Shown: piece after piece, positions 1 to 21,985 of the stretch | How positions within the stretch are numbered: position 1 is the stretch's first letter | Layout of the letters: the number at the start of each line of letters is the position of its first letter | IMG/VR virus record: IMGVR_UViG_2671180460_000013 | Length of the DNA stretch: 26,013 bases | Strand: one strand, 5' to 3' | From: a virus | Taxonomy: Duplodnaviria; Heunggongvirae; Uroviricota; Caudoviricetes | Made by a program: the position numbers and the translations under genes | The notes under the pieces: generated by a model | The model's database searches: none | What the model was told of the DNA's origin: nothing | What the model saw: the letters and a program-made list of their open reading frames with translations, nothing else

Positions 1-381
1 TTATGAGTTCTGGAATTCTTCTGCCCGTCTTTCCAGTTCAGCCATGAAAGAAGTTTTGGCTTTTTCGTGAGCATCTGGGGCCATGATGCTGATGATTTGT
101 ATATTGTCATAATCCATCCAGTGCCTTGTATAAACCAGATAGATATTTGAAGTTCTGTCTATTTGGGCTTTGCTTTTCTTCCATGGTGGTTCTGACGGTA
201 GTCTTATGTGTAATTTATATACAAACGAACCACATAATCTTGCGTTATCTTCCCACTGCCCTTCATTGCCGAATCTGTCAGGGAGAACACCGGTATTTAA
301 CCAGTTTTCCAGAGCCTTTCCGTAAACTTTTGCAATGTCCTGGTATTCAACATCTTTATGAATGCTTACTTTGCTTGCCAT
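1..381 (-). CDS. hypothetical protein (126 aa), distal gene of a two-gene cargo operon; faint RelE/ParE-like C-terminal pattern, function unassigned
   Basis: ORF track 1..381. ATG at 379-381 overlaps the TGA of the upstream gene (TGATG), stop TAA at 1-3. Sampled lines are AT-richer than the structural genes. Confidence 0.5.
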   Translation of the reverse strand: MASKVSIHKDVEYQDIAKVYGKALENWLNTGVLPDRFGNEGQWEDNARLCGSFVYKLHIRLPSEPPWKKSKAQIDRTSNIYLVYTRHWMDYDNIQIISIMAPDAHEKAKTSFMAELERRAEEFQNS

Positions 382-1007
382 CAGGAAAACTCCGGTGCCG
401 GGAGTCCCATGTTTTTATGCTCGGCAATAATCATTGCTTTCACATTTCCGTCAGACAGCGTATTGCCCAGGCTGGTTGTTTTGTCTGGTGCGGTGCTTCG
501 TTTGATGGTGTTGATGGCATCACGAGCGATAAACTCCCCCTGCGCAATTGCCCGACCAAAACGAACCAGTTTATTGCGATAGGCGATTCTTTGCTCCAGG
601 CTATCCGGATACATTTTTGCCAGGTTATCCGGATCCATTACAATTTTGACAGCCTCTTTAACACGGGTGTGCTGCTTAATTGACTCTTCGCATATTTTTA
701 TGATTTTTGCGGTTTTGTCAGTAAATAGTGCTCCCTTACCTCTGTTCTGTCGTTCTTCAATGACTGCATTGAGCGCGGCACGCATGTTGTCATTCAGCCC
801 GTTGATATATTCAATAGCTTCTTCGAGAGGCAGAAACACCTGACCATCATGATGCTCAAATGTAAGCATTGAAACCACTCTGGCGTGTGTCGCGGATTCA
901 ATAACTGTTGTTGGTAGTATCGTGCTTTTAGCTGGCACCGGAGCCAGTGATGCTGTCAGAGCTGTAGTAATAGCAGCAATGGCAGCAGACTTTGATTTTC
1001 GTTTCAT
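381..1007 (-). CDS. exported protein of unknown function (Sec-type signal peptide), about 208 aa
   Basis: ORF 381..1019. Internal ATG at 1005-1007 is preceded by GGAG. N-terminus MKRKSKS followed by hydrophobic AAIAAITTALTASLA and a VPA cleavage-like site. Confidence 0.55.
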   Translation of the reverse strand: MKRKSKSAAIAAITTALTASLAPVPAKSTILPTTVIESATHARVVSMLTFEHHDGQVFLPLEEAIEYINGLNDNMRAALNAVIEERQNRGKGALFTDKTAKIIKICEESIKQHTRVKEAVKIVMDPDNLAKMYPDSLEQRIAYRNKLVRFGRAIAQGEFIARDAINTIKRSTAPDKTTSLGNTLSDGNVKAMIIAEHKNMGLPAPEFS

Positions 1008-1544
1008 AATGCACTCCACAGGTTGATGTGTTCAGCATATCGCAAATAGCAGCTTGTATAAAGAAACGCCACATCAGCAGCGATCGTTTTACGCGCTTTT
1101 CTTCTTGTTGCGATCCTTTTTTCAGTTTTATTTTGGAGCTTAATTTTGTGCGGGCCGCGCCGTGTCTGCCTTCTTTGTTTGATGGTTGTTTGACGCGATC
1201 CTTTCGTGATCGTTTTTTTGTCTCGCGTAAAGTATGAAAACTCTTTTAATATCATGCGGTTTTATTGCTCCGGCCATTTGTGCGATCGTAAAAACCACTT
1301 TGAAAACTGCAAAAAATTTCAAAGCGTGAAATTTCAGATCTTCGCTTTTCCCTCAGTTGCTGCGCGGGCTGGCGGTCATTTTTGCACGGCAGAAAACTGA
1401 AAAAGTGTTTCGACACAAAACCCGCGGGTTGGAGGGGGTAGCGCGGTTTACGTTACCTCACGCTTTACGTCACGCCGTTTGCGCGGTGTGCGCATACAGC
1501 GCCAGAATGGCATGCAGAACGATTAATCAGGTGGCAGATATGAA

Positions 1545-1568
1545 AACGCACGGCCGGGACCGTGCGTT
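1545..1568 (-). terminator. candidate intrinsic terminator hairpin downstream of the tail operon
   Basis: 9-bp inverted repeat AACGCACGG / CCGTGCGTT with a 6-nt loop, followed on the minus-strand transcript by UUCAU. Lies about 40 nt after the stop of the 1607..3304 gene. Confidence 0.4.
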
Positions 1569-1606
1569 GCGTGATGGGGCGTTTATGTGGCTTTTATGTC
1601 TGGTGT

Positions 1607-3304
1607 TCAGGCGATAATGTCGCCGTATTTTTCGCGCAGGCTCGTCGCCTGCAGGGCATCTGCGGCAAGTTCGCTGCTGTTCATTGGTGTGCCAGTGTTG
1701 CTATGGGTGTGGTTTGCTGTATGTGTGGCCAGTAATTGAATCAGATCCAGAATATCGATCAGCAACGTCAGCAGGTTAAGCCCTGACTTTTCCCGCGAGC
1801 CGCCGCGACCAATAAATACTGTCGGAGCGGTAAACTCCAGACCGCCGTCCGCTCTGCATGTTCTGCGGCCTCCCACGTTTTCGGTGAGGTCATGCTCAAT
1901 GGTGGATATCGCCCCTTTGAGTTGAGTCAGCAAATCCTGCGCTACCATCTGGATATGCTCACCGGCTGCGATCGCATAATTGCCGGTAGTAAGGTGTTCT
2001 GTCTGGCCTGTCATCAGTTTGCTGGTACCAAGAACACTGGTTATGTCGTTTGCCTGGACTGTTGTTGTTCTGGTTGTTGTTGTGCGTTCTTCCTGATCGC
2101 TGTTAATGGTTCGCCTGGCTGAATGCTCCCTGATTTGCTGGTCGGTTTCTCTGTGCCAGCTTCCGTCAGTCGTGACGCGCTGAAACACTTCTGCGCGCTG
2201 TTGCTGCAGCTGTTCGCCGGGCTTTACATCAGGCAGGTTATGGCCTGCGGGTAAGATTTGCCTGATGACAGGTTTATCCGGTCGTCCTTCAATGTTGGAT
2301 ATTTCCACGATGGTGCCAGCCGGCGGGTAGGCAAAACATCCCGCCTCGCTACCAGCCATCGGGACGGGGAGTGGTACTGCCGGATAAACAGGCGTATCGC
2401 TTTTATCGTTGCCGTTCTCATCAAGCAGTTGCACATCGACGGCGTAGCGTGGGCGGAAACTGTCGGCAACATCGCCCAGGGTGACGGATTCCGTTGGGGC
2501 AATGACGCGCGCCAGCCTGGTATGTAGAGTACCGCTGGCCAGTTCCGGGAACTGTGTTTCCATCTGTCTGCGTAATGGTGATTTGGAAACAGGGCTACCC
2601 GTGGTGGTAAGGCGTTCCCATGTCAGGGTCATTTTCTCGTTGTTGAGGGCTACACGGGTAATGCGCCCGGCTGGAAGGTTCACGCCCGGTCGCACAGTTT
2701 CCATAAACATGATGTCGATGCTGTTTCCGCCGCTTTGCCCGAGTGTGTACTGTTGCGGAATATCCGGCATGGTAATACTGGCAAACCGTGAGTCCGATGC
2801 GCTTCCCACAAATACGGAACCGTCCGGCATTGGATGCCAGACGTAATCGCTGATACTGAATGCTCGCCCCAGCTGGCTAAGCAGTTGTGTTCCGCTGCCG
2901 CTGTGGGTGATGTAAGGTGTCGGAGTACCGACGTAATCCGCGTCTGGCGTGATGAAAACGATGCCGCTTTGTTTACCCAGACTATCGAGTACATCCCGTA
3001 ACGTTGGATGTTGCATGGAGCAGGGGAAATCAAAATCCAGCACGGCAGCTGCTTCACGGATAAAAAGGCGGCGTGAGCCATTTTCGGCGGGTTGATCGCG
3101 TTCAATGTAGCCGGAGAAATAGCGCCATGCCTCACCATTACGGCCGAGATCAATTTGTATCATTGCGCCGGCAAGACTTTTTTTGGGTGGCAGATTATTA
3201 ACAGAAATGAAGCCACGACCGGCAGCATTCAGGGTAAGAACAAGGCTGATATCGGCAATTTCCGCCAGCTCGCCATTAATCATACAGCGTTGGATTAATT
3301 TCAT
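1607..3304 (-). CDS. baseplate central spike protein (gpV / gp5-like OB-fold and His-rich tip) with a ~300-aa N-terminal extension, possibly a hub-spike fusion
   Basis: 565 aa. Motif AGTIVEISNIEGRPDKPVI resembles the OB-fold signature of P2 gpV / VgrG. C-terminal THTANHTHSNTG resembles the HxH metal-binding apex of spike proteins. ATGA overlap with the upstream gene; AGGAGG RBS. Confidence 0.5.
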   Translation of the reverse strand: MKLIQRCMINGELAEIADISLVLTLNAAGRGFISVNNLPPKKSLAGAMIQIDLGRNGEAWRYFSGYIERDQPAENGSRRLFIREAAAVLDFDFPCSMQHPTLRDVLDSLGKQSGIVFITPDADYVGTPTPYITHSGSGTQLLSQLGRAFSISDYVWHPMPDGSVFVGSASDSRFASITMPDIPQQYTLGQSGGNSIDIMFMETVRPGVNLPAGRITRVALNNEKMTLTWERLTTTGSPVSKSPLRRQMETQFPELASGTLHTRLARVIAPTESVTLGDVADSFRPRYAVDVQLLDENGNDKSDTPVYPAVPLPVPMAGSEAGCFAYPPAGTIVEISNIEGRPDKPVIRQILPAGHNLPDVKPGEQLQQQRAEVFQRVTTDGSWHRETDQQIREHSARRTINSDQEERTTTTRTTTVQANDITSVLGTSKLMTGQTEHLTTGNYAIAAGEHIQMVAQDLLTQLKGAISTIEHDLTENVGGRRTCRADGGLEFTAPTVFIGRGGSREKSGLNLLTLLIDILDLIQLLATHTANHTHSNTGTPMNSSELAADALQATSLREKYGDIIA

Positions 3305-3876
3305 GTTTTCCCTTCCTCCTTCACGCTCCCGATGCCAATCCAGTCCAGCCCGGAGCCAATACCATCATTGATATTTTTCCAGAAAGTCTCCTGGGTATTC
3401 ATTCCTTTATCTGGTGCCTGCTCACTGCCGTTCTGTGTCTGCTGCTTTGCGATTGTTTTCTGTGAGCCACTGCGTGCCGATGCTTTTTCCGGCACGCTTA
3501 ATTTTTCCCTGAGGGTAAAGGTGACCTGCCAGTGCATCTTGCCCTGTTGTTCCGTGGCATCGATGCCGCCCGAAAAAACACCCTGTCGCATATTAATCGC
3601 CTTAGCAGTAGCGTTGGCGATGCGGTATGTTTTTTTGGCTCCGTTACTTTCTGTTGCCTCCGCAAGCTGAAAAATACGGGTCAAAATAGCTTCATCGTTA
3701 AAATCAATAACCCCCGACACGCGCAGCTCTTTGGCCTTGTTTCCCTGCTGGGCGCTCGTGGTGCTGGTTGATTGTCCGGACATATCTTTGTCCGGTAGTT
3801 GCATGGTGGCGCTGACGGTGATGTTGCGCAGCAGAATGGCTTCCCCGTCAAGCGCAAGGACAATCATCTGGGTCAT
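3301..3876 (-). CDS. hypothetical tail/baseplate-associated protein (191 aa)
   Basis: ORF with ATG at 3874-3876; its stop overlaps the start of the spike gene (ATGA). Sits inside the tail operon; no recognisable motif. Confidence 0.4.
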   Translation of the reverse strand: MTQMIVLALDGEAILLRNITVSATMQLPDKDMSGQSTSTTSAQQGNKAKELRVSGVIDFNDEAILTRIFQLAEATESNGAKKTYRIANATAKAINMRQGVFSGGIDATEQQGKMHWQVTFTLREKLSVPEKASARSGSQKTIAKQQTQNGSEQAPDKGMNTQETFWKNINDGIGSGLDWIGIGSVKEEGKT

Positions 3877-4570
3877 GTAGTGCTTCCCTTAGTGATGAGA
3901 GATTATCGCCGACGAACAGCATCACAGCTGTAAAAACCCACTCGGGGTGTGGGATGTTTTTTTGTATCAGCACTGCGGCCTGGCTAAGGGCTCCCTTGTA
4001 GCAAAAGCGCCACACCGGGCAAAATTTTTGCCGGAGTGCTGCCTGCTGATCAGCGATTTCCTGTAGTGCTTTATCTCTCGCATTCATGAACTGACGCAAC
4101 GATGATGACAATGTTTCCGGTGATGTGACGGCAGGAGTGGCTGCCTGTGCAATGGTTGCTGCCAGTGACATGCTGCGAGTGGTCTGTGTCGATAGCATTA
4201 TCGGTTCCGGAAGTGATGTTAGCGGTCTGGCGGGGATTTGCATTCTGCTGATGGCCAGTGAAAGCTGGCTGGAGATCATGCGGGACATTCGTCCCACCTC
4301 TGGCAACGGAAATGCGCCTGAAAATTGCCTGGCGAGTGATAGAAACTCGTCGGCAGACGGGGCGCAAAATAACAGCGCCACAACGTCTTTTTCTGTGTTT
4401 TCTGTCAGATAAGGTAAAAGCGCGGATACAGCATTATCCGGGCTGAGGTAACGCCCTGATGGTGTAATGTTTCCCGTATTTTCTGACCATGGGTGGAGGC
4501 AAACCATTGAACAGGTAATAGCTATGGGGGCTGGTCGCAAAACAGAGCGTATCCATGTTGAATTGTTCAT
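3848..4570 (-). CDS. hypothetical protein (240 aa), Ser/Thr/Ala-rich with a Cys-containing C-terminus; possible accessory or chaperone of tail fiber 2
   Basis: ATG at 4568-4570 with AGGAAG RBS, 24 nt after the fiber-2 stop. Lacks the conserved C-terminal motif of classical tail fiber assembly proteins. Confidence 0.4.
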   Translation of the reverse strand: MNNSTWIRSVLRPAPIAITCSMVCLHPWSENTGNITPSGRYLSPDNAVSALLPYLTENTEKDVVALLFCAPSADEFLSLARQFSGAFPLPEVGRMSRMISSQLSLAISRMQIPARPLTSLPEPIMLSTQTTRSMSLAATIAQAATPAVTSPETLSSSLRQFMNARDKALQEIADQQAALRQKFCPVWRFCYKGALSQAAVLIQKNIPHPEWVFTAVMLFVGDNLSSLREALHDPDDCPCA

Positions 4571-4594
4571 TTGTTCTTCCTGTGTGTCCGGATA

Positions 4595-6151
4595 TTACCC
4601 CATTCCGTTCTGGCGTAATGTTGTTCCCGCAAATATTTTTGCCACCACAACACAGGGAAGGGGGCCATTTTCTGCGCTGGCTGTCTCCTCCAGTGTCGAT
4701 GTATCCAGTGCATAGTAAGGTGTGTCTGGCATCACCACCCGTATTCTTACTGTTATTGTGCTCGCGGTAGCCGAAACAGAACCGACAAAATACTGAGCAG
4801 GAATGTATTTCCGGTTCTGATTCATGTAGAGATAACGTGGTTCGAGCAGAGCAGAAACAACGATACCCACTCCCCCAACAGAGGATTTCCTGACAGGATT
4901 AGATACATCCAGTTCCATAGCATAAATACGTGAACCATCCGGTAGGCTTTTAAATGAATCCAGGTTGCTGTTCAGGGTACTTGCAGCCACCTTTGGAATG
5001 ACCGGATGAGTGCCATCAACAAATAAGTCTCCGGATTGTTGTCTGGACAGTAAATTGGTCGGCGCAGAAGAAATTGCGGGGTCCTCTGATGAATGGATGT
5101 CAAGAGATTCTATCTGTTTGCGAACAAAGGCCACACTGGCAATTTCATTATCTGCTGCATCATCCGGCGGTGTTGGTATAGTCGGCTTTCCTGTGAATTC
5201 CGGGCTTTCCAGAGGAGCCCTTGTTTCAATAAGTTCCCTGAGTGCAACCTCGTTTACTTTCAGGTTTTCCCAGCCAGTCAGCCAGCCATTACCAGTGGAC
5301 CAGTAACGGTTGTAATAAATATTGCCATTAATGCCGTAGAAAATAATGGCCTTTGCTGTATGTGACGGAAGTGGTGGGTTCTGGTTCGCCTCCAGCCAGC
5401 GGATACTTATCACCCCCCGAAAAACAATGCCGGGAAGTACACCGTTTGCCCCATCCACATAATATTCTCCTGGTTCCACATATCTTATCCATGCCAGAAA
5501 ATCAGCATCAGAGTTAAACCTGACGGCCTCTCCCGGAATAAAAATATGCCCAAAACCAAATGCGCCTGGTGTCGCCAGACGACCTTCAGAACGGTCACGG
5601 ATACCATTCTGAGGTTCCATTGTGGCCGCTTTTTTTAGCCCGAGATTATCGCGTGATTCCTGTTGTGCCTCTTCGCCCTCATCAGCAATTTCTGACAGGC
5701 GATTAGGTGCTTTCAGTGCTGTTTTCAGTTCCGGAGTGATATCCACCTGCCAGCTCTGCGGAGGGGCTGTGACTTGTGCAGACTGAGCAATGCCGCTGTA
5801 TATAATCGTGAAATTACGAATAAGTGATTCGCCTGTTACTTTTTGTCGAACAGGCGTTTTTATTACGCCGCACAATGTTCTGCTGGCCTGATGGATGAGG
5901 CAAATCCAGTCATAACTGAATGCGGAGTCATCGGGAACAACGGCACTACACACAATATTGTTCTGACTTAACTGCCCATAGGTCAGTTCATTAACAATAT
6001 ATGTGATTTTTTCTTCCGGGATGGCATCATCTTCGCGCGTCGGCTCCCGCTCCATCAGGGCAAAAATAATGGCATCAGGGCGTGCAGGTAAATTACTGGC
6101 TGTGCATTCAGCAACCCACTTTTCAAATGCTTTCGTTAACAGTGCGCTCAT
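4595..6151 (-). CDS. tail fiber protein 2 (518 aa)
   Basis: N-terminal ~150 aa alignable by eye to the N-terminus of fiber 1 (PARPD, YxW motifs). Contains the fiber motif SPEFTGKPTIPTPP...EIASVAFV. C-terminal half is unrelated to fiber 1. AT-richer than neighbours. Confidence 0.7.
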   Translation of the reverse strand: MSALLTKAFEKWVAECTASNLPARPDAIIFALMEREPTREDDAIPEEKITYIVNELTYGQLSQNNIVCSAVVPDDSAFSYDWICLIHQASRTLCGVIKTPVRQKVTGESLIRNFTIIYSGIAQSAQVTAPPQSWQVDITPELKTALKAPNRLSEIADEGEEAQQESRDNLGLKKAATMEPQNGIRDRSEGRLATPGAFGFGHIFIPGEAVRFNSDADFLAWIRYVEPGEYYVDGANGVLPGIVFRGVISIRWLEANQNPPLPSHTAKAIIFYGINGNIYYNRYWSTGNGWLTGWENLKVNEVALRELIETRAPLESPEFTGKPTIPTPPDDAADNEIASVAFVRKQIESLDIHSSEDPAISSAPTNLLSRQQSGDLFVDGTHPVIPKVAASTLNSNLDSFKSLPDGSRIYAMELDVSNPVRKSSVGGVGIVVSALLEPRYLYMNQNRKYIPAQYFVGSVSATASTITVRIRVVMPDTPYYALDTSTLEETASAENGPLPCVVVAKIFAGTTLRQNGMG

Positions 6152-6157
6152 TACTTC

Positions 6158-6694
6158 TTAATTCTCGCTAATATTCTGCGGTAATTCTGGCCATACAATT
6201 GCGGCATACGATGATTTATCTGTAACCTGACTGAATGTCATCTCTCGTAACGTTTTTGTATAAATACGCCAGACTTTCAGCTTTTCCTTGTCTTCATCGC
6301 TGATTAACCCCAGCAGCAAGTCTGTCTTTTTATCGGATATTTCCCGTTCAGCAATCTCTATAAAACGCGCACGCTCCGACTCCGCCCGCTGTCTGTAGTC
6401 AACAGGAACAGGAAGAACTGCGCCATCTTTATAATACCAACGTGCTTCAATACAAAAACCTTCGGGTAATTCATCCGCTTCCACAATGGTAAAACCTGCC
6501 GGATAAAGCCGGGATACGTCTTCCGCCATTGAATAAATAACGCCGGTTTCAGGATGCGTGCACAGCTTGTACTTCTTCGTGAATTTATCCAGTGATTCAT
6601 AAAAATCCTGCCCGTCTTCACTACGGAAATACTGAATGCCTTCACCATAAGGCATATCTTCAGGGTAGTAACGCGTAACATTTCTGAGCTCCAT
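6158..6694 (-). CDS. tail fiber assembly protein (P2 gpG / Tfa-like)
   Basis: Start moved to the internal ATG at 6692-6694, preceded by AAGGAG. KDGAV motif and C-terminal WPELPQ resemble P2 gpG as recalled. Immediately downstream of fiber 1. Confidence 0.8.
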   Translation of the reverse strand: MELRNVTRYYPEDMPYGEGIQYFRSEDGQDFYESLDKFTKKYKLCTHPETGVIYSMAEDVSRLYPAGFTIVEADELPEGFCIEARWYYKDGAVLPVPVDYRQRAESERARFIEIAEREISDKKTDLLLGLISDEDKEKLKVWRIYTKTLREMTFSQVTDKSSYAAIVWPELPQNISEN

Positions 6695-6708
6695 TGTTTT
6701 CTCCTTAA

Positions 6709-8406
6709 TTAACCTGACACAGAACGCCATGCGCCATTTATATAAATCTGAGCCTGTTTGTAATACACGCCACCGATATTATCCGCAGAGTTGCTCCCGG
6801 TATCCTGAACCAGAATACCGGACAGGGTGCAGCCAGACGGTGCGCGGAACGTCCAGCTGTGTTCGTTCCCTCCCGGGTTGTAAAACACCTCACTGGTGTA
6901 CTGAAAATTCTGCACGCCTCCTGTTCTGGTCTGGTAGCGTTCATCGAAATTGCCATAATCAGTTGGTGTTACCCGCCCTGAAACATTCACTTCCCGGTTA
7001 CTTTGTAACGCGCCATTCTGAAAACGGAATATGTGCTGACCATTGGCATAAACATCCAGCAGGCCGTCACCATTCTGTTTCAGGCCGGTATCGTTATCCC
7101 CGAAAGCAATTGAGTTACCGCCCAGCGCGTTCTGAACGCCGATACCAAGTGCACCATTGACCTGCGAACCACCGCCAACAGACACTTTATGCGACATGGA
7201 TATTTCACCCGTCCGCAGATTAATAGTGAACGGTCGAAGTGGACCAATATCGCCATTCTCGCCCTGACCTTCACTGGTAGGGATAAGGTGCAGGCACTCT
7301 TCCGAACGACGAAAAATCAGACCAAAGGCTTCGTCGAAAATTCGCAGCGCATTAATACCACGGATTTTCAGCTCCCCGGTCATGGTATCGCCGTCGCGCT
7401 CAACAGCGCCTTTTGCCTTATCCATTACGATTTTTACTGCCTTTGATGTGGCGGCACGGTCTTCTGCGTCACTGTCGGTGTCATTACTGTACTGCGCAAA
7501 ACCCTTTTCGTTCAGTGTGGCATCCGGATGTCTGCGGGATTTTTCGTGTTCTGCCAGCGCATTGCTTTGTTCCTCGTCGGGTGTTTCCGGGCGCAGATCC
7601 TGTGGGCCGTCTCCTGTCATTTTTGCAAGTGGCGCGACAAAGTGTCGGAAGCCGTTATCGTCTGTATAGGACGCATGTTCCTGGCGGGCGCAGAACGTAA
7701 AAACGGTATTCCATTCGCCGGTAACAAATCCCTGCCAGCTTGCATCAATCCAGAGGGTATCCCCGACCGCAGCCGGCAGGCTGTAAGGTTCGCGCAGACT
7801 GACGCGCAGACCTCCCACATAACCCACGCCGGCGGCAACAGTAGCGGTACCGTCCTGATAGCTGACCTGAAAACCATCCCCCAGAAAAGCGGCTTCACCG
7901 TAGTGATCAAACGCCAGCAGCCGGCGGGCCTCATCCATTCCTGCAAGGCGTGCAGTGAAATCAATCTGCCAGACATCAGCGCTGACATCGATATGCATTG
8001 CTGCGGCTGCGCCGTCAAACTCCATGGAAAATGTGCGGATCAGGTTGTTTCCCTGCACGCCGTTCGCTGTTTTAATTTTTTGCTGACGAGGTGTGTGTGC
8101 AATCATGCAGAGCACGCCGCTTTCTTCGTTCAGCAGACCGATCCAGTTGTATTCGAAGTCGCCGACTGTCGTGTCCAGAATGATGGAAAACGCGGTCGCG
8201 TTCGGCGACAGGAGGCCGTACTGGGTGACCGGCGCACGATACTGAATCATGGATTCATCAGGGAGTATCTCATCGCGGGGGATCTCTGCGGATTCATCCT
8301 GTCCCGGAATATATGCAAAAACAAATGTATCCGGTCGCGCAGGTTTTCCACTGATGATCTGATTTGCGCACCAGTGTTCGTATTGTTCAGTAATAATCGT
8401 GCTCAT
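6709..8406 (-). CDS. tail fiber protein 1 (P2 gpH-like)
   Basis: 565 aa. AEHEKSRRHPDATLNEKGF, GDNDTGLKQNGDGLLDVYANGQHIFRFQNG and C-terminal YINGAWRSV match recalled P2 gpH blocks. ATGA overlap with the upstream gpI-like gene. Confidence 0.85.
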   Translation of the reverse strand: MSTIITEQYEHWCANQIISGKPARPDTFVFAYIPGQDESAEIPRDEILPDESMIQYRAPVTQYGLLSPNATAFSIILDTTVGDFEYNWIGLLNEESGVLCMIAHTPRQQKIKTANGVQGNNLIRTFSMEFDGAAAAMHIDVSADVWQIDFTARLAGMDEARRLLAFDHYGEAAFLGDGFQVSYQDGTATVAAGVGYVGGLRVSLREPYSLPAAVGDTLWIDASWQGFVTGEWNTVFTFCARQEHASYTDDNGFRHFVAPLAKMTGDGPQDLRPETPDEEQSNALAEHEKSRRHPDATLNEKGFAQYSNDTDSDAEDRAATSKAVKIVMDKAKGAVERDGDTMTGELKIRGINALRIFDEAFGLIFRRSEECLHLIPTSEGQGENGDIGPLRPFTINLRTGEISMSHKVSVGGGSQVNGALGIGVQNALGGNSIAFGDNDTGLKQNGDGLLDVYANGQHIFRFQNGALQSNREVNVSGRVTPTDYGNFDERYQTRTGGVQNFQYTSEVFYNPGGNEHSWTFRAPSGCTLSGILVQDTGSNSADNIGGVYYKQAQIYINGAWRSVSG

Positions 8407-9038
8407 GCTTTGTCTGCCTGTAATGTGTAATGCTCCACGGACAGGCCGTAATGTCCTGCCTGTAGCGAAGCGGTTAACCAGATGGTGTCCTTTCTCACCG
8501 TTGCTTCTGCTGTGTGATACCTGTAATGACCATCGAATGTGCCGGCTGTCAGCCGGGCGGTGGTTGTATTGATTACCTGAAAGAAATAGCGCCTGCAGGT
8601 ACGGCCATACTGGCGCACGAGCTGCATCATCAGGGCATTGTTTTCGCTTAACTGGGTGTCATTGATACGCAGTAAAATAACGTCCCAGTCATGCTGCAGC
8701 TGTCGTTCCAGGGTTTTTACCTCTCCCACCCCAAGACGCTTAAAGATGCGTTCGAAGCCTGCGCGTTCGCCCGAGTCCTGAGCGTTGATAAACGCGTGTT
8801 TTACCCTTAAGCGAAATAATGAAACTGGCTCCCCACTGAAGCGGGTGATGTTGCGCTGATAGGCAAGCAGGTTAAGCAGAGGCTCTGCGCAGGTATCAAC
8901 ATCAATTTGCTGTAGTGGCCATGTCAGCCAGCTGTAGACCTTCTCCCAGTAACGACGTGAAGAATGTGCCAGTGTTAATGGCTCTCCCTTGTTCATCCAG
9001 GTTGGGAGAGGGAATTCGGGCATCTCCGGAATATTCAT
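8403..9038 (-). CDS. baseplate protein, P2 gpI-like (tail protein I family)
   Basis: Start moved to the internal ATG at 9036-9038 (GGAGG RBS, ATGA overlap with the J-like stop). Position between the J-like gene and the tail fiber matches the P2 J-I-H order. Sequence similarity is weak. Confidence 0.55.
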   Translation of the reverse strand: MNIPEMPEFPLPTWMNKGEPLTLAHSSRRYWEKVYSWLTWPLQQIDVDTCAEPLLNLLAYQRNITRFSGEPVSLFRLRVKHAFINAQDSGERAGFERIFKRLGVGEVKTLERQLQHDWDVILLRINDTQLSENNALMMQLVRQYGRTCRRYFFQVINTTTARLTAGTFDGHYRYHTAEATVRKDTIWLTASLQAGHYGLSVEHYTLQADKA

Positions 9039-10219
9039 GACCCCACCTCCACGATAAGGGATTCCAGGCGAGGCACAGCCAGGTCGCTGAGAATATCCGG
9101 AAGGGAAAACGTGACCGATTCCACCTGTGGAAATACCTGGTGGATCTCTTCGCCCAGTCGGGACATGCTGAAACGGCTGTACGGCCATGTTTTCTGAACG
9201 TCATAATCGCTGTTTTCGCGAAACGCACAGCGGACCAGATTCTCTACGTTGCGTAATAAAGCCTGTATCTCTTCAGCGTTGAGGTTCAGCGTTGCATACA
9301 GCCAGAGTGTCACGGTCAGGGCATGGCGCGTTTCAGGCATGGAAAAACAACGCAAATCATCGCCGTGTCCGTGATGACCTTCATCGTTAATAAATGCGTT
9401 TACTGCATCAACGAACGGTTCGGATGCGATGCCGGTATCCAGCAGAATGTAAGCATTTGCTGTGCCGGGGCCGCGTGGTGCGTCATGCAAAAAATAGATG
9501 CGGTCGGCACTGATACCTGCAACGCCGGCAATTAATCCCCGGTAAACAGCATCTGTGTGATAAGCGCCGGCAAGATTAAACTGATTGCGAACACGATCAC
9601 GCAGCTCGTCATCGCTTTCTTCGTTGGCACCCGGTGTGGTCAGCCAGTTTTCATCGTTCTCAACGCCGGCAATACCATCAATCGCCACCGGAAGGATGCG
9701 GTAATATCCCGGCGCAAGGTTAAAGCCGGCTCCGGCCTGTTCCGCAGAAACATCGATGTTCATGCTGAGTGTTCCTGCCGGAATAACGGTATCCCTGACA
9801 ACGGTCAGCGTATAAATCACGCCGTTAATGCGTTCTGTCTGAATCTGCGTACCGGCCGGCACGGTAACTGTGCGATCAATGTCGTTTTTGGTGAAACGAA
9901 TCACGCCGGCTGCGTGCGTGGCGGCCTTGCGTTGCAGGTTTACCGCCCAGGCAAAAACATCAACGAATACACCGCTGGCATCAGCCAGAAACAGGTTTTT
10001 CATCACCACATTAACCAGCGCATCTTTCAGCCACATCACGGGCTTTGTGGTGATGGCTGTAATCAGTCGCCAGAACGGCGACATGCGGGATGTGTTGGTA
10101 ATAAGCCCTTCGTCTTTGACAATGGCTTCAAATTCAGCGCGCGCCTGTTCTTCGGTTACCGGCATGCCATTATCAGCCAGAATGCGCTCGTAATCTGCGG
10201 TAGGTTTGCCGTTAATCAT
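9035..10219 (-). CDS. baseplate wedge protein, Baseplate_J family (P2 gpJ / T4 gp6-like)
   Basis: About 394 aa; ESDDELRDRV region resembles recalled P2 gpJ. ORF-track start at 10222 is TTG; the adjacent ATG at 10217-10219 is used. Confidence 0.65.
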   Translation of the reverse strand: MINGKPTADYERILADNGMPVTEEQARAEFEAIVKDEGLITNTSRMSPFWRLITAITTKPVMWLKDALVNVVMKNLFLADASGVFVDVFAWAVNLQRKAATHAAGVIRFTKNDIDRTVTVPAGTQIQTERINGVIYTLTVVRDTVIPAGTLSMNIDVSAEQAGAGFNLAPGYYRILPVAIDGIAGVENDENWLTTPGANEESDDELRDRVRNQFNLAGAYHTDAVYRGLIAGVAGISADRIYFLHDAPRGPGTANAYILLDTGIASEPFVDAVNAFINDEGHHGHGDDLRCFSMPETRHALTVTLWLYATLNLNAEEIQALLRNVENLVRCAFRENSDYDVQKTWPYSRFSMSRLGEEIHQVFPQVESVTFSLPDILSDLAVPRLESLIVEVGS

Positions 10220-10562
10220 CAAGAGATACCGTAAAAGTCAGGTGGTCAAAAAAATCTTCGGTGTGGGCGCTAATCAGCAGGCGACCAGAAAGCGGGGTTT
10301 CTTCTGTCACACTGACCGTGCCAGGTGTGATGCGCTCATCATCTTCAATCAGTAGTGTCATCTGCATTATGAGGTCGGCACGAAGCGTCGGGCTTTTTTC
10401 AGCCAGCAGGCGCGTTGCCAGTCCGCTCTCAATGATGGCGTGCTGGCAGTCCTGGGCAATACTTTCCCTGTTGTTGCATAACACCGGCTCACTGGCGCTG
10501 TTCAGCGTGAGATTGCGACCGGTGATAAGCAAATCAATGTAAAGCGGTTTATCAGTATGCAT
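10212..10562 (-). CDS. small baseplate protein, tentatively GPW / gp25-like
   Basis: Internal ATG at 10560-10562 with GGAG RBS gives 116 aa, overlapping the tape-measure stop. Size and position match P2 gpW; motif match is loose. Confidence 0.45.
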   Translation of the reverse strand: MHTDKPLYIDLLITGRNLTLNSASEPVLCNNRESIAQDCQHAIIESGLATRLLAEKSPTLRADLIMQMTLLIEDDERITPGTVSVTEETPLSGRLLISAHTEDFFDHLTFTVSLDD

Positions 10563-12648
10563 GTAGCTCCATCCACTCGTTGAGACGGGCAGGAGATGGA
10601 TCCTGCACGTTGACGTTGACCACACGACGGGAGTTATCGATTGTGGTCTGGTTTTCGTTGTTGTTCTGCATCTCTGCCGCAATGCCACCCGGCCCCGCGC
10701 TGATGGCTTTACCACCGGTTAATACGGAGCCTTCGCCACTTCCTGTGCTTTCTGATGTGCCGATGTTAACGCCGGGGATCATGTTGAGTTTGTCCACAAT
10801 CCAGCCCCATGAATCACTGAAGGACTGTTTCACCAGTTCCCAGAGGTTACTGAAAATGTTCAGGATGCCGCCGGCGATATCCTTCAGGGCGTCCAGAGGT
10901 GAATGCGTGGAAAAATAGTTAACCAGTGCATTCCAGCCGTCCTGGATTGTGTTCCATGCATTGCCGAACCATGCCCCCATACTGCCGACCATTTCAGCCA
11001 CCCACTGAAAGGCGGCGGTGTCCATCAGTGCGGCTTTGATTTCATCCCAACGGGTGATCAGGAAATAAATGCCCACACCCAGCGCAGCCAGTGCCAGGAT
11101 GATTAATGTGATGGGGCTGAAAAGTAACTGTGTTGCAATTGCAGCTCCGCTGGTGACTGCGGTGTAGATTTTCATTGCTATGCCGGCGGCACCCAGCGCA
11201 ACAGAATAAAGCCAGAGTCCGGCGCGCTGTAATTTCAGCAGCGCCAGCTGAATTTTTGCTTTGACGTTGTATGTTCCCATAGCAATGGACATGGCCAGAT
11301 ACAGCGCCCTGACCGTTCGGGCAACTACAGTGAATGCCCACATGGTAGCCGTCAGTGTGCGTTTCAGCAGAATGAGAATCTTCAGAGGTGTAACTGCTGC
11401 CAGCCAGACCAGCCGCAGTCCTGTCCAGACAAACTTCGCCACACCCACCATAATGTTGACAACGGCACCCACTGCGGCAATGCCCAGCAGGGCGGCAGAC
11501 AGTAAACCAATAGCCCGTGTGATATTGGGATACAGACGTAACCAGGCAACAAAGGATTTACCGCCTTCGTTGCTTTTCTGGATAAACGGGTACAGAACAG
11601 GCAGCAACTGCGTGCCGATTTCGATGCGAATGCCGTTAATAATTGCGGCGGCCTGTTCCCATGGATCAGCCATGGCCTGCGCCATTTCGACAGCCTTATC
11701 CATCCCTTTGATATTGCCCAGCGTGGCGATATTCTTTTCAAGTCCGCCAATGTCCGCATTGAGTAATTTAATCATGGCCACAGCTTCATCGGAGCCAAAG
11801 GCGCTTTTCAGCAAATCGGAATCAGCCACTTTTGACAGATCACCAAATTTGCCCCTGATAAGTTTCATGATCTCGACAACACTTTTCATCGTGCCGTTTT
11901 TATTCACGAAATTAAGCCCCAGCTTTTTCTGGGCGCTGCCTACTGCGGCAAGAAATGCCTTGTACTTTGTCCCGGCCTCGCTGCCACTCATGGTGGCCTG
12001 CAGTTGTCCCAGCACGGCGAACTGTTCAGCCGCATCAATACCGGCCGCTTTTGCACTGGCACCCAGCGTGGTGAACGCCGCTGACATGTTATCGCCGGTT
12101 GTTTTAAACATTTGCACGGCGGTGGCGGTTTGCCCGGCGACCTGCTCCACCCATTTGCTTTTTCCCATGGCATCAGCCTGGTCTTTAAAGATGCCGTACA
12201 TGGTGCCCATGTAGGCGGTAATGGTCTGGCTGCTGGATTTGGTTGCTGCTGCCACCGTTGCTGATGCGGTGGTGAAGCGGGACAGCTCATCGTCAGTTAA
12301 CCCGGCAATGGCTGACTGGATGTCGTAAGAAGCACGCACAAAATCCTGCGCAGCCCCGCCGTATTCCATAGTGAAATCAACGGCGGCGCGGCTGAGTTTA
12401 CGCAATCCGGACTCTGCGACGCCCAGTGATTTCACCTCACCGAGCGCCCTGTCCATTTCAATGGCTGGCATCAGTGCCCCCTGAATGGCTGCACCCACTC
12501 CCCAGAGCGCAGCGCCTCCGGTAGCAATGTCCCGAAAGGCTCCCCGACTTGTTGCAGCAAATCCCTGAACCTGTCGCCCGGCTGCACGCAACGGCCTTGT
12601 CAGGCGGTCTGTCAGTTCAAGAAGTAATTCAAGGCGCTGTTGTGACAT
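10552..12648 (-). CDS. tail tape measure protein
   Basis: 698 aa, Ala/Gly-rich with a long hydrophobic central segment. Directly follows the frameshifted tail chaperone pair; its ATG overlaps the stop of the frameshift product. Confidence 0.8.
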   Translation of the reverse strand: MSQQRLELLLELTDRLTRPLRAAGRQVQGFAATSRGAFRDIATGGAALWGVGAAIQGALMPAIEMDRALGEVKSLGVAESGLRKLSRAAVDFTMEYGGAAQDFVRASYDIQSAIAGLTDDELSRFTTASATVAAATKSSSQTITAYMGTMYGIFKDQADAMGKSKWVEQVAGQTATAVQMFKTTGDNMSAAFTTLGASAKAAGIDAAEQFAVLGQLQATMSGSEAGTKYKAFLAAVGSAQKKLGLNFVNKNGTMKSVVEIMKLIRGKFGDLSKVADSDLLKSAFGSDEAVAMIKLLNADIGGLEKNIATLGNIKGMDKAVEMAQAMADPWEQAAAIINGIRIEIGTQLLPVLYPFIQKSNEGGKSFVAWLRLYPNITRAIGLLSAALLGIAAVGAVVNIMVGVAKFVWTGLRLVWLAAVTPLKILILLKRTLTATMWAFTVVARTVRALYLAMSIAMGTYNVKAKIQLALLKLQRAGLWLYSVALGAAGIAMKIYTAVTSGAAIATQLLFSPITLIILALAALGVGIYFLITRWDEIKAALMDTAAFQWVAEMVGSMGAWFGNAWNTIQDGWNALVNYFSTHSPLDALKDIAGGILNIFSNLWELVKQSFSDSWGWIVDKLNMIPGVNIGTSESTGSGEGSVLTGGKAISAGPGGIAAEMQNNNENQTTIDNSRRVVNVNVQDPSPARLNEWMELHAY

Positions 12649-13129
12649 TACGATCCCTTAAAAGCACGGATAATGCCGTTATTGACGGCGATGCTCATAT
12701 TTTCCCAGTAGTGGTTATCCAGCCAGACGGCGGCAGCCAGTGACTGCGGCGAGTCATCCTCGCCGGGCAGCCAGTGGCGGCGCAGAATCAGCATCCGGGT
12801 AAGGTCATTGCGATCAATGGCCCCCAGATGGCTTTTTATTTTTTTACGGTGATTTCCACTTCCGGCACAAACTCGTTATTCACGGCTGTTGCCAGGCTGG
12901 CCGGCATTCCTGGTTTTTCCAGCAACTGGTTCAGCAGATCGCGGTGCTCTTTAATCACGATACGGCGCAGGTAGTTTTTCAGCGGCGCGATTTTGTTATC
13001 CGGCATGAAGTCGTTCTGCAGGTCGTTGTAGGCTTTTACGGTCGGGATAAACGTCAGTTCATGCTCGCCGACCTGTAAAGTGATGGTGTTCTCTGCGGTA
13101 GTCTGGGTGTTTTTATCGTTCATCATCAT
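12648..13129 (-). CDS. tail assembly chaperone frameshift fusion product (E+E' / G-T analogue) made by a programmed -1 frameshift
   Basis: The -1 frame entered at the slippery site stays open for 63 codons (hand-translated, no stops) and ends at a TAA overlapping the tape-measure ATG (TAATG at 12646-12650). Confidence 0.6.
12836..13129 (-). CDS. tail assembly chaperone (P2 gpE / lambda gpG analogue)
   Basis: 97-aa ORF directly upstream of the tape measure gene, ending ...VKK-TAA on an A-rich slippery run. Three consecutive ATGs at 13121-13129; the third has the best RBS spacing. Confidence 0.7.
   Translation of the reverse strand: MMMNDKNTQTTAENTITLQVGEHELTFIPTVKAYNDLQNDFMPDNKIAPLKNYLRRIVIKEHRDLLNQLLEKPGMPASLATAVNNEFVPEVEITVKK
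12839..12845 (-). other. slippery heptamer A AAA AAA for the -1 ribosomal frameshift
   Basis: Transcript reads ACC GTA AAA AAA TAA; the X XXY YYZ heptamer sits at the last sense codons of the chaperone gene. Confidence 0.6.
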
Positions 13130-13155
13130 TTCCTTTTAAAGTCAAGAATAAGAGG

Positions 13156-13187
13156 GCTTAATAAGCCTGCAGGAAGGCTTATTAAGC
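13156..13187 (-). terminator. stem-loop (12-bp perfect inverted repeat) between the endolysin and the tail chaperone; candidate attenuator or partial terminator
   Basis: GCTTAATAAGCC, 8-nt loop, GGCTTATTAAGC, 7 nt after the endolysin stop. Followed on the transcript by a moderately U-rich tract (CCUCUUAUUCUU). Confidence 0.4.
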
Positions 13188-13193
13188 GTAAAA

Positions 13194-13535
13194 TCAGCGC
13201 ACGCCGTCGTGCTCAAGGCTGAAATGATTGCCATCCGGGCGGTTTTTAAAACGACCGCCCCATGCGCCACCAAGGGATTCCCAGTACTCGCCCAGCTCGC
13301 GGTAGGCCTCTGTGCGGGTCTGATATTCACCGTTAATAAACAGATTAAAATCCACGGCCAGCCGCTGGCAGTGCAGGCTGTTGGCAATGCCGGATCCCTT
13401 TTGTGCGTTGAGTTTTGCCTGTTCTGGCGTGCGGTACGCCTCACCGAACGTCAGGCCATAACCGCGCTGATGGGCAAACTGGATGAGTTTTCCGATCATG
13501 ACGGTAAATTGTTGTTGCTTATCGGAGAGTTTCAT
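13194..13535 (-). CDS. endolysin, M15-family zinc peptidase (L-alanyl-D-glutamate peptidase type)
   Basis: 113 aa. HCQRLAVD (H-x6-D) and C-terminal GNHFSLEH fit the M15 zinc-binding arrangement. AAGGAG RBS. Adjacent to the holin. Confidence 0.75.
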   Translation of the reverse strand: MKLSDKQQQFTVMIGKLIQFAHQRGYGLTFGEAYRTPEQAKLNAQKGSGIANSLHCQRLAVDFNLFINGEYQTRTEAYRELGEYWESLGGAWGGRFKNRPDGNHFSLEHDGVR

Positions 13536-13639: not shown

Positions 13640-13644
13640 TGCTG

Positions 13645-17350: not shown

Positions 17351-18061
17351 TTACGTGCCCTGCAACGCGCGCAGTCTTGCGGCAATGCGCTGGCGCAGGG
17401 TTTTCACCTGAATTTTTGGATGCAGCCAGGCAGCCTGTTCCAGACACTGGTCGGCCTGTTGCAGTCTCTCCGGATCGTTAATTGCACTGGCCAGCGGTTT
17501 ACCGTCATCGCCGCGCAGCAGCAGGACGCCTGCAAAGCGCCAGTAGCGGGCAGCAAGGCGTTCATTCACGCGCCATTTGTCACGGATTTTTTCAAACACC
17601 TGCTGAAAATATGGCGCGATACTGTTCCCACGTTCAGCTTCGGTTTCTGCCCATTCAAGAATGAAATGGGCCACAAACGTTGGCAGCTCGCTTTTGAAGT
17701 TCTCCGGCGTCTTTTGCCCCTGCTCAATGGCAATGTCAGCCCACCGCAGCGCCATCTCAAACTGCCCGGTATCGAACAGCCAGATGATGCAGTACACCAG
17801 AATGGGATTCTGATAGACGCGTTCCCCCTCCAGATAAGCCTGTGCGTGTGGCAGCCAGCGGGGCAGCAGCGTGTTCCGTTTGAATTCCAGCTTGTCAGAC
17901 AGCAGCTCCATGTTGTGCAGTTGTCTGATGTCGTTATCCAGTGCCAGCAGCTTAATGTGCTGACTCTCTGTGCTGATGGCGCTCCCGTCCGTTCTGGTCA
18001 TGAGCGCCGCACGGCGCTCATCCATCTGTCGGGCACGTTGTCGCTGCATTGGCGTTGGCAT
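17351..18061 (-). CDS. M: terminase small subunit, P2 gpM-like
   Basis: 236 aa; position between N and L as in P2; GGAG RBS. Confidence 0.8.
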   Translation of the reverse strand: MPTPMQRQRARQMDERRAALMTRTDGSAISTESQHIKLLALDNDIRQLHNMELLSDKLEFKRNTLLPRWLPHAQAYLEGERVYQNPILVYCIIWLFDTGQFEMALRWADIAIEQGQKTPENFKSELPTFVAHFILEWAETEAERGNSIAPYFQQVFEKIRDKWRVNERLAARYWRFAGVLLLRGDDGKPLASAINDPERLQQADQCLEQAAWLHPKIQVKTLRQRIAARLRALQGT

Positions 18062-20197: not shown

Positions 20198-21985
20198 ATG
20201 GCGTATTCTGATGAGGTGATTGCTGCTGCAAAATCGCTCTATCTGAAAAGACACACACCAAAAGAAATACAAAAGAAGCTCGGACTGAACAGCCCGCGAA
20301 TTGTTTATTACTGGGCGACAAAGTTTGAGTGGTACACACAGCTTAATGCTGAAGGCGTGGAGGATGTTATCGCTCGTCGTCTCGCTGTACTGGCGGAGCG
20401 TGATCATAAAACGCCGGAAGAGCACGATGAACTTGATCGCCTGATTGGTCATCACGTCAAACTGATGTCGGTCAGGAACAAGCACACGGAACGCATGGCC
20501 GAGATTGAACGAATGGGAGCGGATATTCCCCAGTCTGGTCGTTATGGAAAAGAAGAACGCGGAGAAAAAGGTGCAGGTAAGAAAGAGCGCCCCCGCAAAG
20601 CTAATGACGTTTCCGGACTGACTGCTGAAAGTTTTGAGCCGTTTACGAAAAAGTTGTTTGCTTATCAGTTGCATCTGCGTGAAAACAAATTCCGCCGTGT
20701 ACGCAACCTGCTTAAATCCCGCCAGATTGGGGCGACGTATTACTTCGCGTTTGAGGCATTTGAAGATGCAGTATTAACCGGCGACACACAGATATTTTTA
20801 TCGGCATCAAAACGTCAGGCCGAAGTGTTCCGTACTTATATTGTAAAAATTGCACAAACAGAGTTTGGCATTCCCATTAAAGGCAATCCGGTTAAGTTAA
20901 GTAATCTGGCTGAACTGTATTTTCTGGCGACCAACAGTAACACAGCGCAGTCAAACAGCGGTCACCTGTATATTGATGAATACCTGTGGATCCCCGGTTT
21001 TCGCCGTCTCAATGAAGTGGCATCAGGGATGGCCACCCATAAACACTGGCGCATTACCTATTTCTCCACGCCGTCAGCCAAAACACATCAGGGCTACCCG
21101 TTCTGGTCTGGCGATGAATGGCGCAAAGGTGACCCGAAACGAAAAGGGATTGAGTTCCCGTCCTTTGATGAGCTGCGCGATGGCGGGCGCGAATGTCCGG
21201 ATGGTCAGTGGCGCTATGTGGTTACGCTGGAAGATGCTATTGCCGGCGGCTTTAACCTTGCTGACATCAACGAGTTGCGCGAGCGGTACAACGAAACAGC
21301 GTTCAATATGTTGTTTATGTGCGTGTTTGTGGATGACAAAGAGAGCGTCTTTAAATTCGATGACCTCGTGCGCTGTGGCGTTGATGTCAGTACGTGGGAG
21401 GATTTTCACCCGGAAGATGCCATGCCATTTGGAAACCGTGAAGTGTGGGGTGGCTTTGACCCTGCACGCTCCGGCGATAACGCCACGTTTGTGGTGCTGG
21501 CACCGCCGCTGGTTGCGGCAGAACGATTCCGCGTGCTGGAAAAACACCACTGGCGCAGCATGTCATTCCAGTTTATGGCAGAGCGTATCCGCAGCATTAA
21601 GGCGCGCTATAACATGACGTTTATCGGCATTGACGTCACCGGCCTTGGCTACGGTGTCTTTGAGCTGGTTCAGGGATTTGCCCGCCGTGAAACAGTGGCC
21701 ATTCATTACAGCGTTGAATCCAAAAACCGCCTGGTGATGAAGATGCTGGATCTGATTTACGCCAACCGTATTGAGTGGGATGAGGAGGCAACAGATATTC
21801 CGGCATCATTTTTGGCCATTCGTCAGGAATCCACCAATAGTGGCAATAAAGTTACTTTTACTGCTGAACGTAGCGAAGAAACCGGGCACGCTGACATCTT
21901 CTTTGCCATAGCTCATGCCGCAAGTAATGAACCCCTGAACTATAAGCACAAGCGCAAATCAACATGGATCCTGTCAGATGAGTAA
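20198..21985 (+). CDS. P: terminase large (ATPase) subunit, P2 gpP-like
   Basis: 595 aa. ATG with AGGTGAGG RBS. Walker-B-like LYIDEY. Divergent from O and upstream of Q, as in P2. Confidence 0.9.
   Translation: MAYSDEVIAAAKSLYLKRHTPKEIQKKLGLNSPRIVYYWATKFEWYTQLNAEGVEDVIARRLAVLAERDHKTPEEHDELDRLIGHHVKLMSVRNKHTERMAEIERMGADIPQSGRYGKEERGEKGAGKKERPRKANDVSGLTAESFEPFTKKLFAYQLHLRENKFRRVRNLLKSRQIGATYYFAFEAFEDAVLTGDTQIFLSASKRQAEVFRTYIVKIAQTEFGIPIKGNPVKLSNLAELYFLATNSNTAQSNSGHLYIDEYLWIPGFRRLNEVASGMATHKHWRITYFSTPSAKTHQGYPFWSGDEWRKGDPKRKGIEFPSFDELRDGGRECPDGQWRYVVTLEDAIAGGFNLADINELRERYNETAFNMLFMCVFVDDKESVFKFDDLVRCGVDVSTWEDFHPEDAMPFGNREVWGGFDPARSGDNATFVVLAPPLVAAERFRVLEKHHWRSMSFQFMAERIRSIKARYNMTFIGIDVTGLGYGVFELVQGFARRETVAIHYSVESKNRLVMKMLDLIYANRIEWDEEATDIPASFLAIRQESTNSGNKVTFTAERSEETGHADIFFAIAHAASNEPLNYKHKRKSTWILSDE

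Follow-up and report, generated by a model that had tools for sequence, protein, structure and literature searches.

A conserved noncoding spacer of an HP1/ESSI-2-like prophage as a probable cos DNA-packaging region beside an exchangeable toxin cassette

The cos site of phage P2 and satellite P4 is known from Ziermann and Calendar (1990; as cited in PMC9122126 and PMC5694545), and cos is all that P2 and P4 share, their sole homologous region (PMC9122126). Cargo hotspots adjacent to cos have been described for both (PMC9122126), and the replacement of genes beside cos has long been described for prophages of the 186 type (Dodd and Egan 1996, as cited in PMC5694545). In lambda, cos is made up of cosQ, cosN and cosB, as outlined in PMC4669245, with a nicking core flanked by repeated protein-binding sites within ~200 bp. 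In HP1 (Hpunavirus) the late operon closes with orf35 and a terminator, immediately after which comes cos, on the side of attP and int: the record (NC_001697) gives the end of orf35 at 32163 and the genome end at 32355, with cosL at 1-9, attP at 251-694 and int at 698-1711.

We analysed a stretch of 26,013 nucleotides (the window), which is a prophage of the P2 family whose late genes lie almost entirely on the minus strand. They include those for the P2-type scaffold, capsid and small terminase, and for the sheath, tape measure, baseplate and tail fibres. The plus strand carries, at 20198-23012, the large terminase and portal genes (portal 21978-23012) and then an ogr-like gene. This last one, for a zinc-finger activator of the Ogr/Delta type (23078-23335), begins right behind the portal gene, and a terminator (23340-23400) comes next. 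At 24077-25977 (minus strand), adjoining the head genes, there are ParA/ParB-like partition genes and a gene for a gpA-like origin-nicking protein; partition genes are unusual for an integrated P2-type prophage. We also noticed that, in two related prophages, RefSeq reports fragments of a 'shikimate transporter' pseudogene inside the tail-fibre region (L001 11596-12666, L002 10004-10525), which are probably annotation artefacts of a tail-fibre segment.

The spacer considered here is 599 bp long (1008-1606) and is bounded by the end (1607) of a minus-strand gene for a 565-aa protein and by the start (1007) of a 208-aa cargo ORF. The initial annotation had taken it for a gene-free, noncoding stretch, and this was confirmed: the ends of the flanking ORFs leave exactly 1008-1606, the five mechanical ORFs inside it (60-86 aa) matched no Pfam family above the cut-off, no Rfam family was found, and no RefSeq feature lies under 1112-1606 in any listed E. 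coli genome carrying most of that interval. Moreover, 1-nt indels separate close relatives at ~1213, 1521 and 1588, inside the small ORFs. At least 80% of the spacer is present in 45 E. coli genomes, among the matches listed. The neighbour previously labelled as a spike gene is a baseplate protein of the HP1 orf35 type, preceded in the late operon by a homologue of HP1 ORF34. We are highly confident that the spacer is composed of a cos packaging module, the terminator of the tail operon and the leader of a swapped-in toxin cassette (Table 1). The initial annotation, which had proposed a cargo promoter with operators, a small RNA or a recombination/replication-related site, was right in part; a cos DNA-packaging site, the best-supported reading, was absent from it.

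Table 1. Features of the spacer and of the genes that bear on its interpretation (window coordinates)
Feature	Coordinates	Strand	Basis
Leader of the cargo cassette (208-aa ORF and YafO toxin)	1008..1107	-	cassette-only matches
Mosaic breakpoint between cargo cassette and conserved cos module	1108..1112	.	match limits in relatives
Conserved noncoding module, probable cos	1112..1606	.	~45 E. coli genomes; homology to sequenced phages from ~1110 to 1484
12-mer AAAACTGAAAAA, inverted copy, left limit of the cos module; candidate terminase or host-factor site	1118..1129	-	exact copy and conservation
Left-arm block: 12-mer AAAACTGCAAAA (1303-1314), then AT-rich block with TGAAATTTCA palindrome (1327-1336)	1303..1336	+	conservation
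GC-rich block CCCTCAG...GCGCGGGCTGGCGG	1351..1376	+	conserved from E. coli prophages to ESSI-2, YenM324, SI7 and ev015
12-mer AAAACTGAAAAA nearest to the predicted cut site, ~24 bp left of the predicted cohesive end	1393..1404	+	nearly invariant in all aligned lineages
Predicted cos core (cosN-like), CCCGCGGGTTGGAGGGGGTAGCGCGG	1421..1446	+	ends of related phages
TTTACGTYAC repeat pair directly right of the core; candidate lineage-specific terminase recognition sites (cosB-like)	1447..1473	+	positional conservation
Intrinsic terminator of the tail operon: 9-bp stem, 6-nt loop, then UUUUCAUAU	1545..1568	-	inverted-repeat search; stem kept in relatives
HP1 orf35-type baseplate protein, 565 aa, last gene of the late operon, positional anchor of cos	1607..3304	-	phrog_2258, full-length, E 1.9e-232
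P2 gpM-type small terminase subunit, presumed trans-acting cos-recognition protein	17351..18061	-	PF05944, E 1.9e-36
Large terminase subunit, presumed trans-acting cos nuclease and packaging ATPase	20198..21985	+	PHROG large-terminase families, E down to 1.9e-99

Judged from sequence comparison, 1112-1606 is best explained as the cos region of an integrated temperate phage that belongs to the P2 family (Peduoviridae) and resembles HP1 and ESSI-2. Searches with tblastn found the orf35 homologue to be the last gene before the end of the linear record in HP1, HP2, K139, phiO18P, ESSI-2, SW5 and SW3, at 130-450 bp from that end, which places the cos of the lineage exactly where the spacer is. The window has the order of HP1, with the putative cos directly downstream of the orf35 homologue and at the prophage end nearest to att. 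The window stops short of the att site and of int, and in E. coli relatives there are only cargo genes between the conserved region and chromosomal raiA, copA and ytfP. A cognate P2-type terminase, with homologues of both gpM and gpP, is encoded by the same element. The layout of HP1, read from the orf35 side, is the same, with repeats of the TTT(A/C)CGTG type, a C-rich core (G-rich on the plus strand of the window) and TTTTTCAGTT ~30 nt further on; in HP1, AACTGAAAAAAC (ttttttcagtt in the record) stands ~30 nt from the cosL end. HP1 differs in that its DNA similarity to the window is marginal, its core is shorter, being annotated as the 9-nt cosL, and only 250 bp separate cos from attP, where the window has accessory genes inserted.

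Comparison of the spacer and its flanks with the phage collection by blastn, in both near and distant modes, gave no match. The link with sequenced phages was obtained by tblastn of the orf35-like protein, then by inspection of the end sequences and then by a profile search. For the latter we built a profile HMM solely from the end junctions of six sequenced ESSI-2-like phages and ran nhmmer with it on both strands of the whole window. There was one significant match, at 1110-1484 on the plus strand (85.5 bits, E 1.7e-26), the next best having an E value of 0.46. The junctions of the ESSI-2-like phages (Cronobacter ESSI-2; Escherichia ESSI2_ev015, ev129 and ev239; Yersinia vB_YenM_324; Salmonella SI7) are homologous to the window over ~375 bp and agree with it in block order and in having the 12-mer, a G-rich core and, to the right of this, a repeat pair; these phages too have a cargo region between core and int, holding for example a serine acetyltransferase in ev015. 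They differ from the window in nucleotide sequence (identity ~70%), in the core (GCGGGTGCGGTGTAG versus GTTGGAGGGGGTAG), in the sequence of the repeat pair and in the place of the terminator.

The ends of these records fall in the core. In ESSI-2 the same 15-mer, GCGGGTGCGGTGTAG, is found at both record ends and aligns to 1428-1441 of the window (GTTGGAG-GGGGTAG). In ev129, one of the ESSI2_ev phages isolated from viromes (PMC6969025), both contig ends abut Nextera adapter in the homologous segment, the limits lying between ...AACCGCAGGCG and CTGTCTCTTATACACATCT and between AGATGTGTATAAGAGACAG and GTAGCGCCGTTTTTGTC. Within the homologous segment, ev015 at its left end and ev239 at its right end likewise pass straight into Nextera adapters, and the right contig end of ev015 reads ...GGGTGC, 3 nt short of the start of its left end. 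By homology only, then, the spacer coincides with physical ends of virion DNA, as the ends of ESSI-2, ev015, ev129 and ev239 align to 1428-1441, and we predict the cohesive-end segment of the window at ~1428-1441, GTTGGAGGGGGTAG. We infer from these mapped ends, together with homology, position and conservation, that the phage of the window is cleaved here and where its nicks would lie.

Not all the ESSI2_ev records end at this site (ev040 does not), the left end of ev239 carries ~110 nt of unrelated sequence, and the 15 nt repeated at the two ends of ESSI-2 might conceivably come from an assembly overlap. In a MAFFT alignment the G-rich block also takes in the junction of the HP1 record and the 19-mer of P2; we did not count this as independent evidence, because the identity of the P2 19-mer (12/19) is at background and the similarity of the HP1 DNA is marginal (E 0.02). 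As a side observation, adapter and index sequences of Nextera are still present at the termini of the RefSeq/GenBank records of ESSI2_ev015, ev129 and ev239 (NC_049395, NC_049394 and NC_049392; positions 1-48 of L008, the ends of L019 and L020, and the end of L021), and in ev129 an automatic gene call overlaps the adapter-contaminated end.

The locus is like that of P2 and P4 in having a P2-type terminase, a G-rich core, a packaging signal common to helper and satellite, and a variable cargo locus directly beside the putative cos and reading away from it, as old/tin do in P2. However, it lies after the last tail gene, with the portal gene 21 kb away, whereas the cos of P2 lies between gene A (with old and tin) and the portal gene Q. 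Since the site follows the last tail gene and is also beside the attachment site, the cargo locus is both cos-adjacent and att-adjacent, unlike in P2. A cos between the portal gene and ogr (23012-23078) was ruled out, as the satellite described below shares no noncoding DNA there. The 19-mer of the P2 cohesive end had 0 matches with <=3 mismatches in the window, the 55-bp core and 19-nt cohesive end of the P2 family were not found in it, and the junction profile did not match the P2 junction; hence we assign the site to the HP1/ESSI-2 type and not to the P2/186/P4 sequence type. The best gapless likeness to the P2 19-mer is 12/19, at 1426; as other places in the window do as well or better, it was dropped as evidence. 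The conserved module, with its ~375-500 bp, is several times longer than the 55-bp core of the P2 family, and part of it could serve another function.

Conservation over 31 related sequences peaks on discrete blocks, including the 12-mers and the core. As 24 of the 31 sequences were fetched with the 28-mer at 1426-1453, the invariance of that segment is partly built in; the other blocks played no part in the choice, and one of these, 1303-1336, ranks with the stretches that vary least (55-65% of positions invariant in each 20-nt bin). The 12-mer AAAACTGMAAAA, missed by the initial annotation, occurs in three exact copies in the window, all of them in the spacer (1118-1129 on the minus strand, 1303-1314 and 1393-1404 on the plus strand), versus an expectation of 0.59 matches at <=1 mismatch in the whole 26 kb, and is a stronger repeat than the TTTACGTYAC pair. 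Its first copy belongs to the leftmost conserved block, TTTTTTCAGTTTT at 1117-1129; ESSI-2, YenM324 and the satellites all retain the TTTTTTCA block, just left of which homology stops in three independent comparisons. Conserved blocks follow at ~1226-1255 (CGTAAA and TTTAATATCA) and at 1303-1336, which reads AAAACTGCAAAAAATTTCA...TGAAATTTCA; the palindromes TTTGAAA, TTTCAAA and TGAAATTTCA, pointed out earlier, were indeed found at 1299-1336. The GC-rich block together with the 12-mer nearest to the core makes an imperfect inverted copy of 1117-1162, and an internal inverted nhmmer match (1405-1355 versus profile positions 11-62) is, with an E value of 0.46, suggestive only.

The TTTACGTYAC pair consists of TTTACGTTAC at 1447-1456 and TTTACGTCAC at 1464-1473. 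It had been reported with the correct distance, 17 bp from start to start, and with coordinates off by one. The number of copies alone is not above chance (3 matches at <=1 mismatch in the window versus 1.79 expected). The pair keeps its position in related phages and its sequence differs by lineage, being GTTTCCGTC and GCTTCCGTC in SI7, GTTTCCGTC and GTTTCTTTCGT in YenM324, GTTTTTGTC and GTTTTATTTTGT in ESSI-2, and TTTTCCGTG and TTTTTACGTG in HP1. A fixed position with a lineage-specific sequence is the pattern expected of a protein-binding site that determines specificity. The pair and the three AAAACTGMAAAA 12-mers are conserved flanking motifs that, by analogy with known cos sites, probably bind terminase.

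The hairpin right of the pair, with arms AACGCACGG and CCGTGCGTT, begins 39 nt and ends 62 nt after the stop codon of the orf35-like gene. Its terminator-like character, already recognised, is limited to the minus strand, as only there a short U run comes next, and on that strand it terminates the tail operon. Relatives retain the stem, which in one of them (L017) shows one compensatory change (CAC/GTG to CAT/ATG). The U tract is weak, and the hairpin failed the T-run criterion of the scan. ESSI-2-like phages have a canonical terminator after the same gene, in a slightly different place.

The spacer has two parts of different behaviour: 1008-1107 moves with the YafO cassette, and 1112-1606 moves with the tail module whatever the cargo. 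We sorted the spacer matches in 67 E. coli genomes into classes. In relatives with other cargo the matches start at query position 1112, and cassette-only matches stop at 1107, which points to cassette replacement with a breakpoint at 1108-1112. Among the matches listed, 1112-1606 is found with 88-98% identity in ~45 E. coli genomes, always after an orf35-type gene, while the genes on its left vary (for example hok with a serine acetyltransferase, hok with a Com/methyltransferase pair, or YafO with a nuclease). Such a constant region beside changing cargo matches the cos-adjacent hotspots of P2 and P4. As for 1008-1107, the listed E. coli genomes matching only query positions 1-100 (H67-H80) have 98-99% identity to it; the one such locus that we inspected (L003) is a classic P2-type prophage in which it lies upstream of the same 208-aa/YafO pair, near ogr and chromosomal serS. 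This part presumably holds the 5' UTR of the cassette and a weak promoter: a scan of 900-1750 for sigma-70 promoters gave none at threshold, and by eye there is only an 8/12 match in 1008-1107 (TTTATA, 17 nt, TATGCT). The proposal of a recombination/replication-related site is thus upheld in that the spacer marks a recombination junction, with conserved elements found across the related elements compared; replication or recombination as its main function was not supported. A 13-nt inverted repeat (1064-1076 and 1572-1584) that brackets the module was judged coincidental, because its left arm belongs to the cassette, which is also found in P2-type prophages without the right arm.

On the left of the spacer there are, both on the minus strand, the 208-aa ORF (1007..381) and a gene for a YafO-family toxin (381..1). 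The 208-aa protein (381-1007) matched no Pfam or PHROG family; its position suggests that it is the antitoxin partner of YafO, and it is far larger than YafN. Some RefSeq records call it 'iron-sulfur cluster assembly scaffold protein SufA', a name that seems to be a misannotation. In most of the 24 IMG/VR contigs with the 28-mer of the core, hok is found at a constant -780..-646 from the core; one of the 24 (L036) carries the YafO cassette of the window. In GTDB, with one genome per species, the same 28-mer was found only in Escherichia albertii. Most phages and satellites of the group (IMG/VR L023-L047; L002, L018, L004) have a Hok/Gef gene at a constant 646-780 bp to the left of the cos core, so that the hok locus looks like the ancestral neighbour of cos and the YafO cassette of the window like a later replacement. 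A function of the conserved region related to hok/sok was ruled out, as the window and L036 keep the region with no detectable hok, and ESSI-2 and YenM324 keep it with no hok annotated in their flanks.

Four satellite-like E. coli elements of ~12 kb (L005, L016, L027 and L042) share the region, and none of them matched the terminase or portal genes of the window. The first of these, 12.7 kb long, lies between hpt and gcd in E. coli 52F4 (~2900-15600 of locus L005; NZ_CM147848.1, ~2538900-2551600) and has genes for two integrases, a Cox-like regulator, a P2-type major capsid protein (~44% aa identity to the capsid protein of the window), an Icd-like protein, an 889-aa primase, an ogr-like protein and hok. 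Ten of its annotated proteins were scanned versus PHROGs with no terminase, portal or tail family found, and none is annotated either. In the full comparison with the window, which was done for this element, what is shared is only ogr (82.7%), 1303-1568 (82%) and a weak capsid match, the flanks of the spacer being alignable out to ~1117. This element, in which those ten proteins and the annotation showed no terminase, keeps the putative cos of the presumed helper as essentially the sole noncoding DNA in common with it. An element packaged by the terminase of another must keep the recognition site of that terminase, and by analogy with P2 and P4 the cos module of the satellite would be what packaging by this type of helper needs. 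The ogr gene, the only coding DNA strongly similar (82.7%) between the two, suggests that the satellite can switch on the late genes of the helper. P4-like satellites that bring a capsid gene with them and target helpers of the HP1/ESSI-2 kind may be a variant not described so far. At locus L004 (5724-5755) the satellite has, in the interval from hok to the cos module, an additional pair of TTTACGTC motifs (TTTACGTCGC, 12 nt, TTTACGTCAC) that lies beyond the homology to the window.

We weighed the cos reading against other functions of the spacer. That 1112-1606 could be mainly the promoter/operator region of the 208-aa ORF/YafO operon, like the old-tin promoter on the cos side in P2, agrees with the direction of the cargo, which is transcribed away from the spacer on the minus strand, and with the P2 old-tin transcript, which starts ~150 bp from cos. 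A promoter of the cassette within 1008-1107, the part that moves with it, is in fact plausible and compatible with the cos reading. However, 1112-1606 is unchanged beside YafO, hok, a methylase with Com, an acetyltransferase and a nuclease, it is also found in ESSI-2-like phages and satellites with unrelated neighbours, and no sigma-70-like promoter was returned for 900-1750. We therefore regard a main promoter role as very unlikely, and the cargo promoter and operators proposed initially are unsupported for the conserved part, which stays constant while the cargo varies. A small regulatory RNA or another structured RNA is less probable still, indeed hardly credible. Folding energy is ordinary versus shuffles on both strands (z -1.38 and +0.28), the covariance-model search gave no Rfam family at the gathering score in the window or at E<=1 in 900-1750, and the conservation resides in short A/T-rich repeats and a G-rich core, which suggests DNA bound by proteins. 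The points in favour of an RNA are that a long intergenic region with hairpins is conserved and that terminator-like hairpins are enriched (7 found versus 1.8 expected), yet the terminator is the sole hairpin with a compensatory change. The small RNA of the initial annotation hence found no support.

Equally slight is the probability that the spacer is another kind of DNA site, i.e. an arm of the attachment site bound by integrase, a parS for the ParAB-like genes (24-25 kb) or a replication origin. Such sites would fit the short motifs repeated in direct and inverted orientation, the closeness to the prophage end, the mere 250 bp between attP and cos in HP1 and the partition-like proteins encoded in the window. 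For the attachment site, however, there is DNA of the element on both sides (cargo on the left, orf35 or the 169-aa gene of the satellite on the right), so that the region is not a junction of prophage and chromosome. Against a parS, the satellites keep the motifs, yet no Par-like gene is annotated in them; against an origin, the P2-type origin lies inside gene A (PMC8537503).

Under the cos reading, events during lytic growth would be as follows, by analogy with described phages. The terminase, whose small subunit is gpM-like (17351-18061) and whose large subunit is gpP-like (20198-21985), would bind the region, probably at the three AAAACTGMAAAA 12-mers towards the cargo and at the TTTACGTYAC pair towards the tail genes. 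Staggered nicks made by terminase in the G-rich core at ~1428-1441 would then give the cohesive ends of the virion DNA. As in HP1, the orf35-like tail gene would stand at the opposite end of the linear virion genome from the cargo, attP and integrase, and the minus-strand hairpin at 1545-1568 would end the transcription of the tail operon just before cos. The logic would be the same as in lambda, where repeats of cosB and cosQ flank the nicked core: here, too, the flanking repeats may position terminase. The terminase and sequences of lambda are unrelated, and the assignment of sub-sites and the pairing of proteins with motifs in the window are by this analogy only. The YafO cassette, with its leader at 1008-1107, would have replaced the hok locus that most relatives have at this cos-adjacent, att-proximal cargo site.

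A more far-reaching proposal, which we put forward tentatively and consider unlikely on the whole, is that the module of ~375 bp is more than a minimal cos. Its inverted pair of units, each made of a 12-mer and a GC-rich block, around an AT-rich centre, followed by core and repeat pair, would mark out a packaging-specificity group of its own, to which both HP1/ESSI-2-like Escherichia prophages and undescribed 12-kb satellites with their own P2-type capsid gene belong, and the left edge of the module (1112-1118) would be a fixed recombination boundary for swaps of toxin and defence cargo.

No new mechanism is revealed here: the biology is ordinary, and the interest lies mainly in the link with satellites and in the unusually long, repeat-rich architecture. 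The location of cos would fix the genome ends of the virion for this group of prophages, and it would explain why a long conserved stretch without genes lies between the tail genes and the variable toxin/defence cargo, at a site left unannotated in the records of related E. coli genomes that we inspected. The 28-mer of the core offers a simple marker both for the helpers and for the small satellites that apparently depend on them. Finally, the cos-adjacent cargo hotspot known from P2 and P4 would be extended to the HP1/ESSI-2-like lineage.
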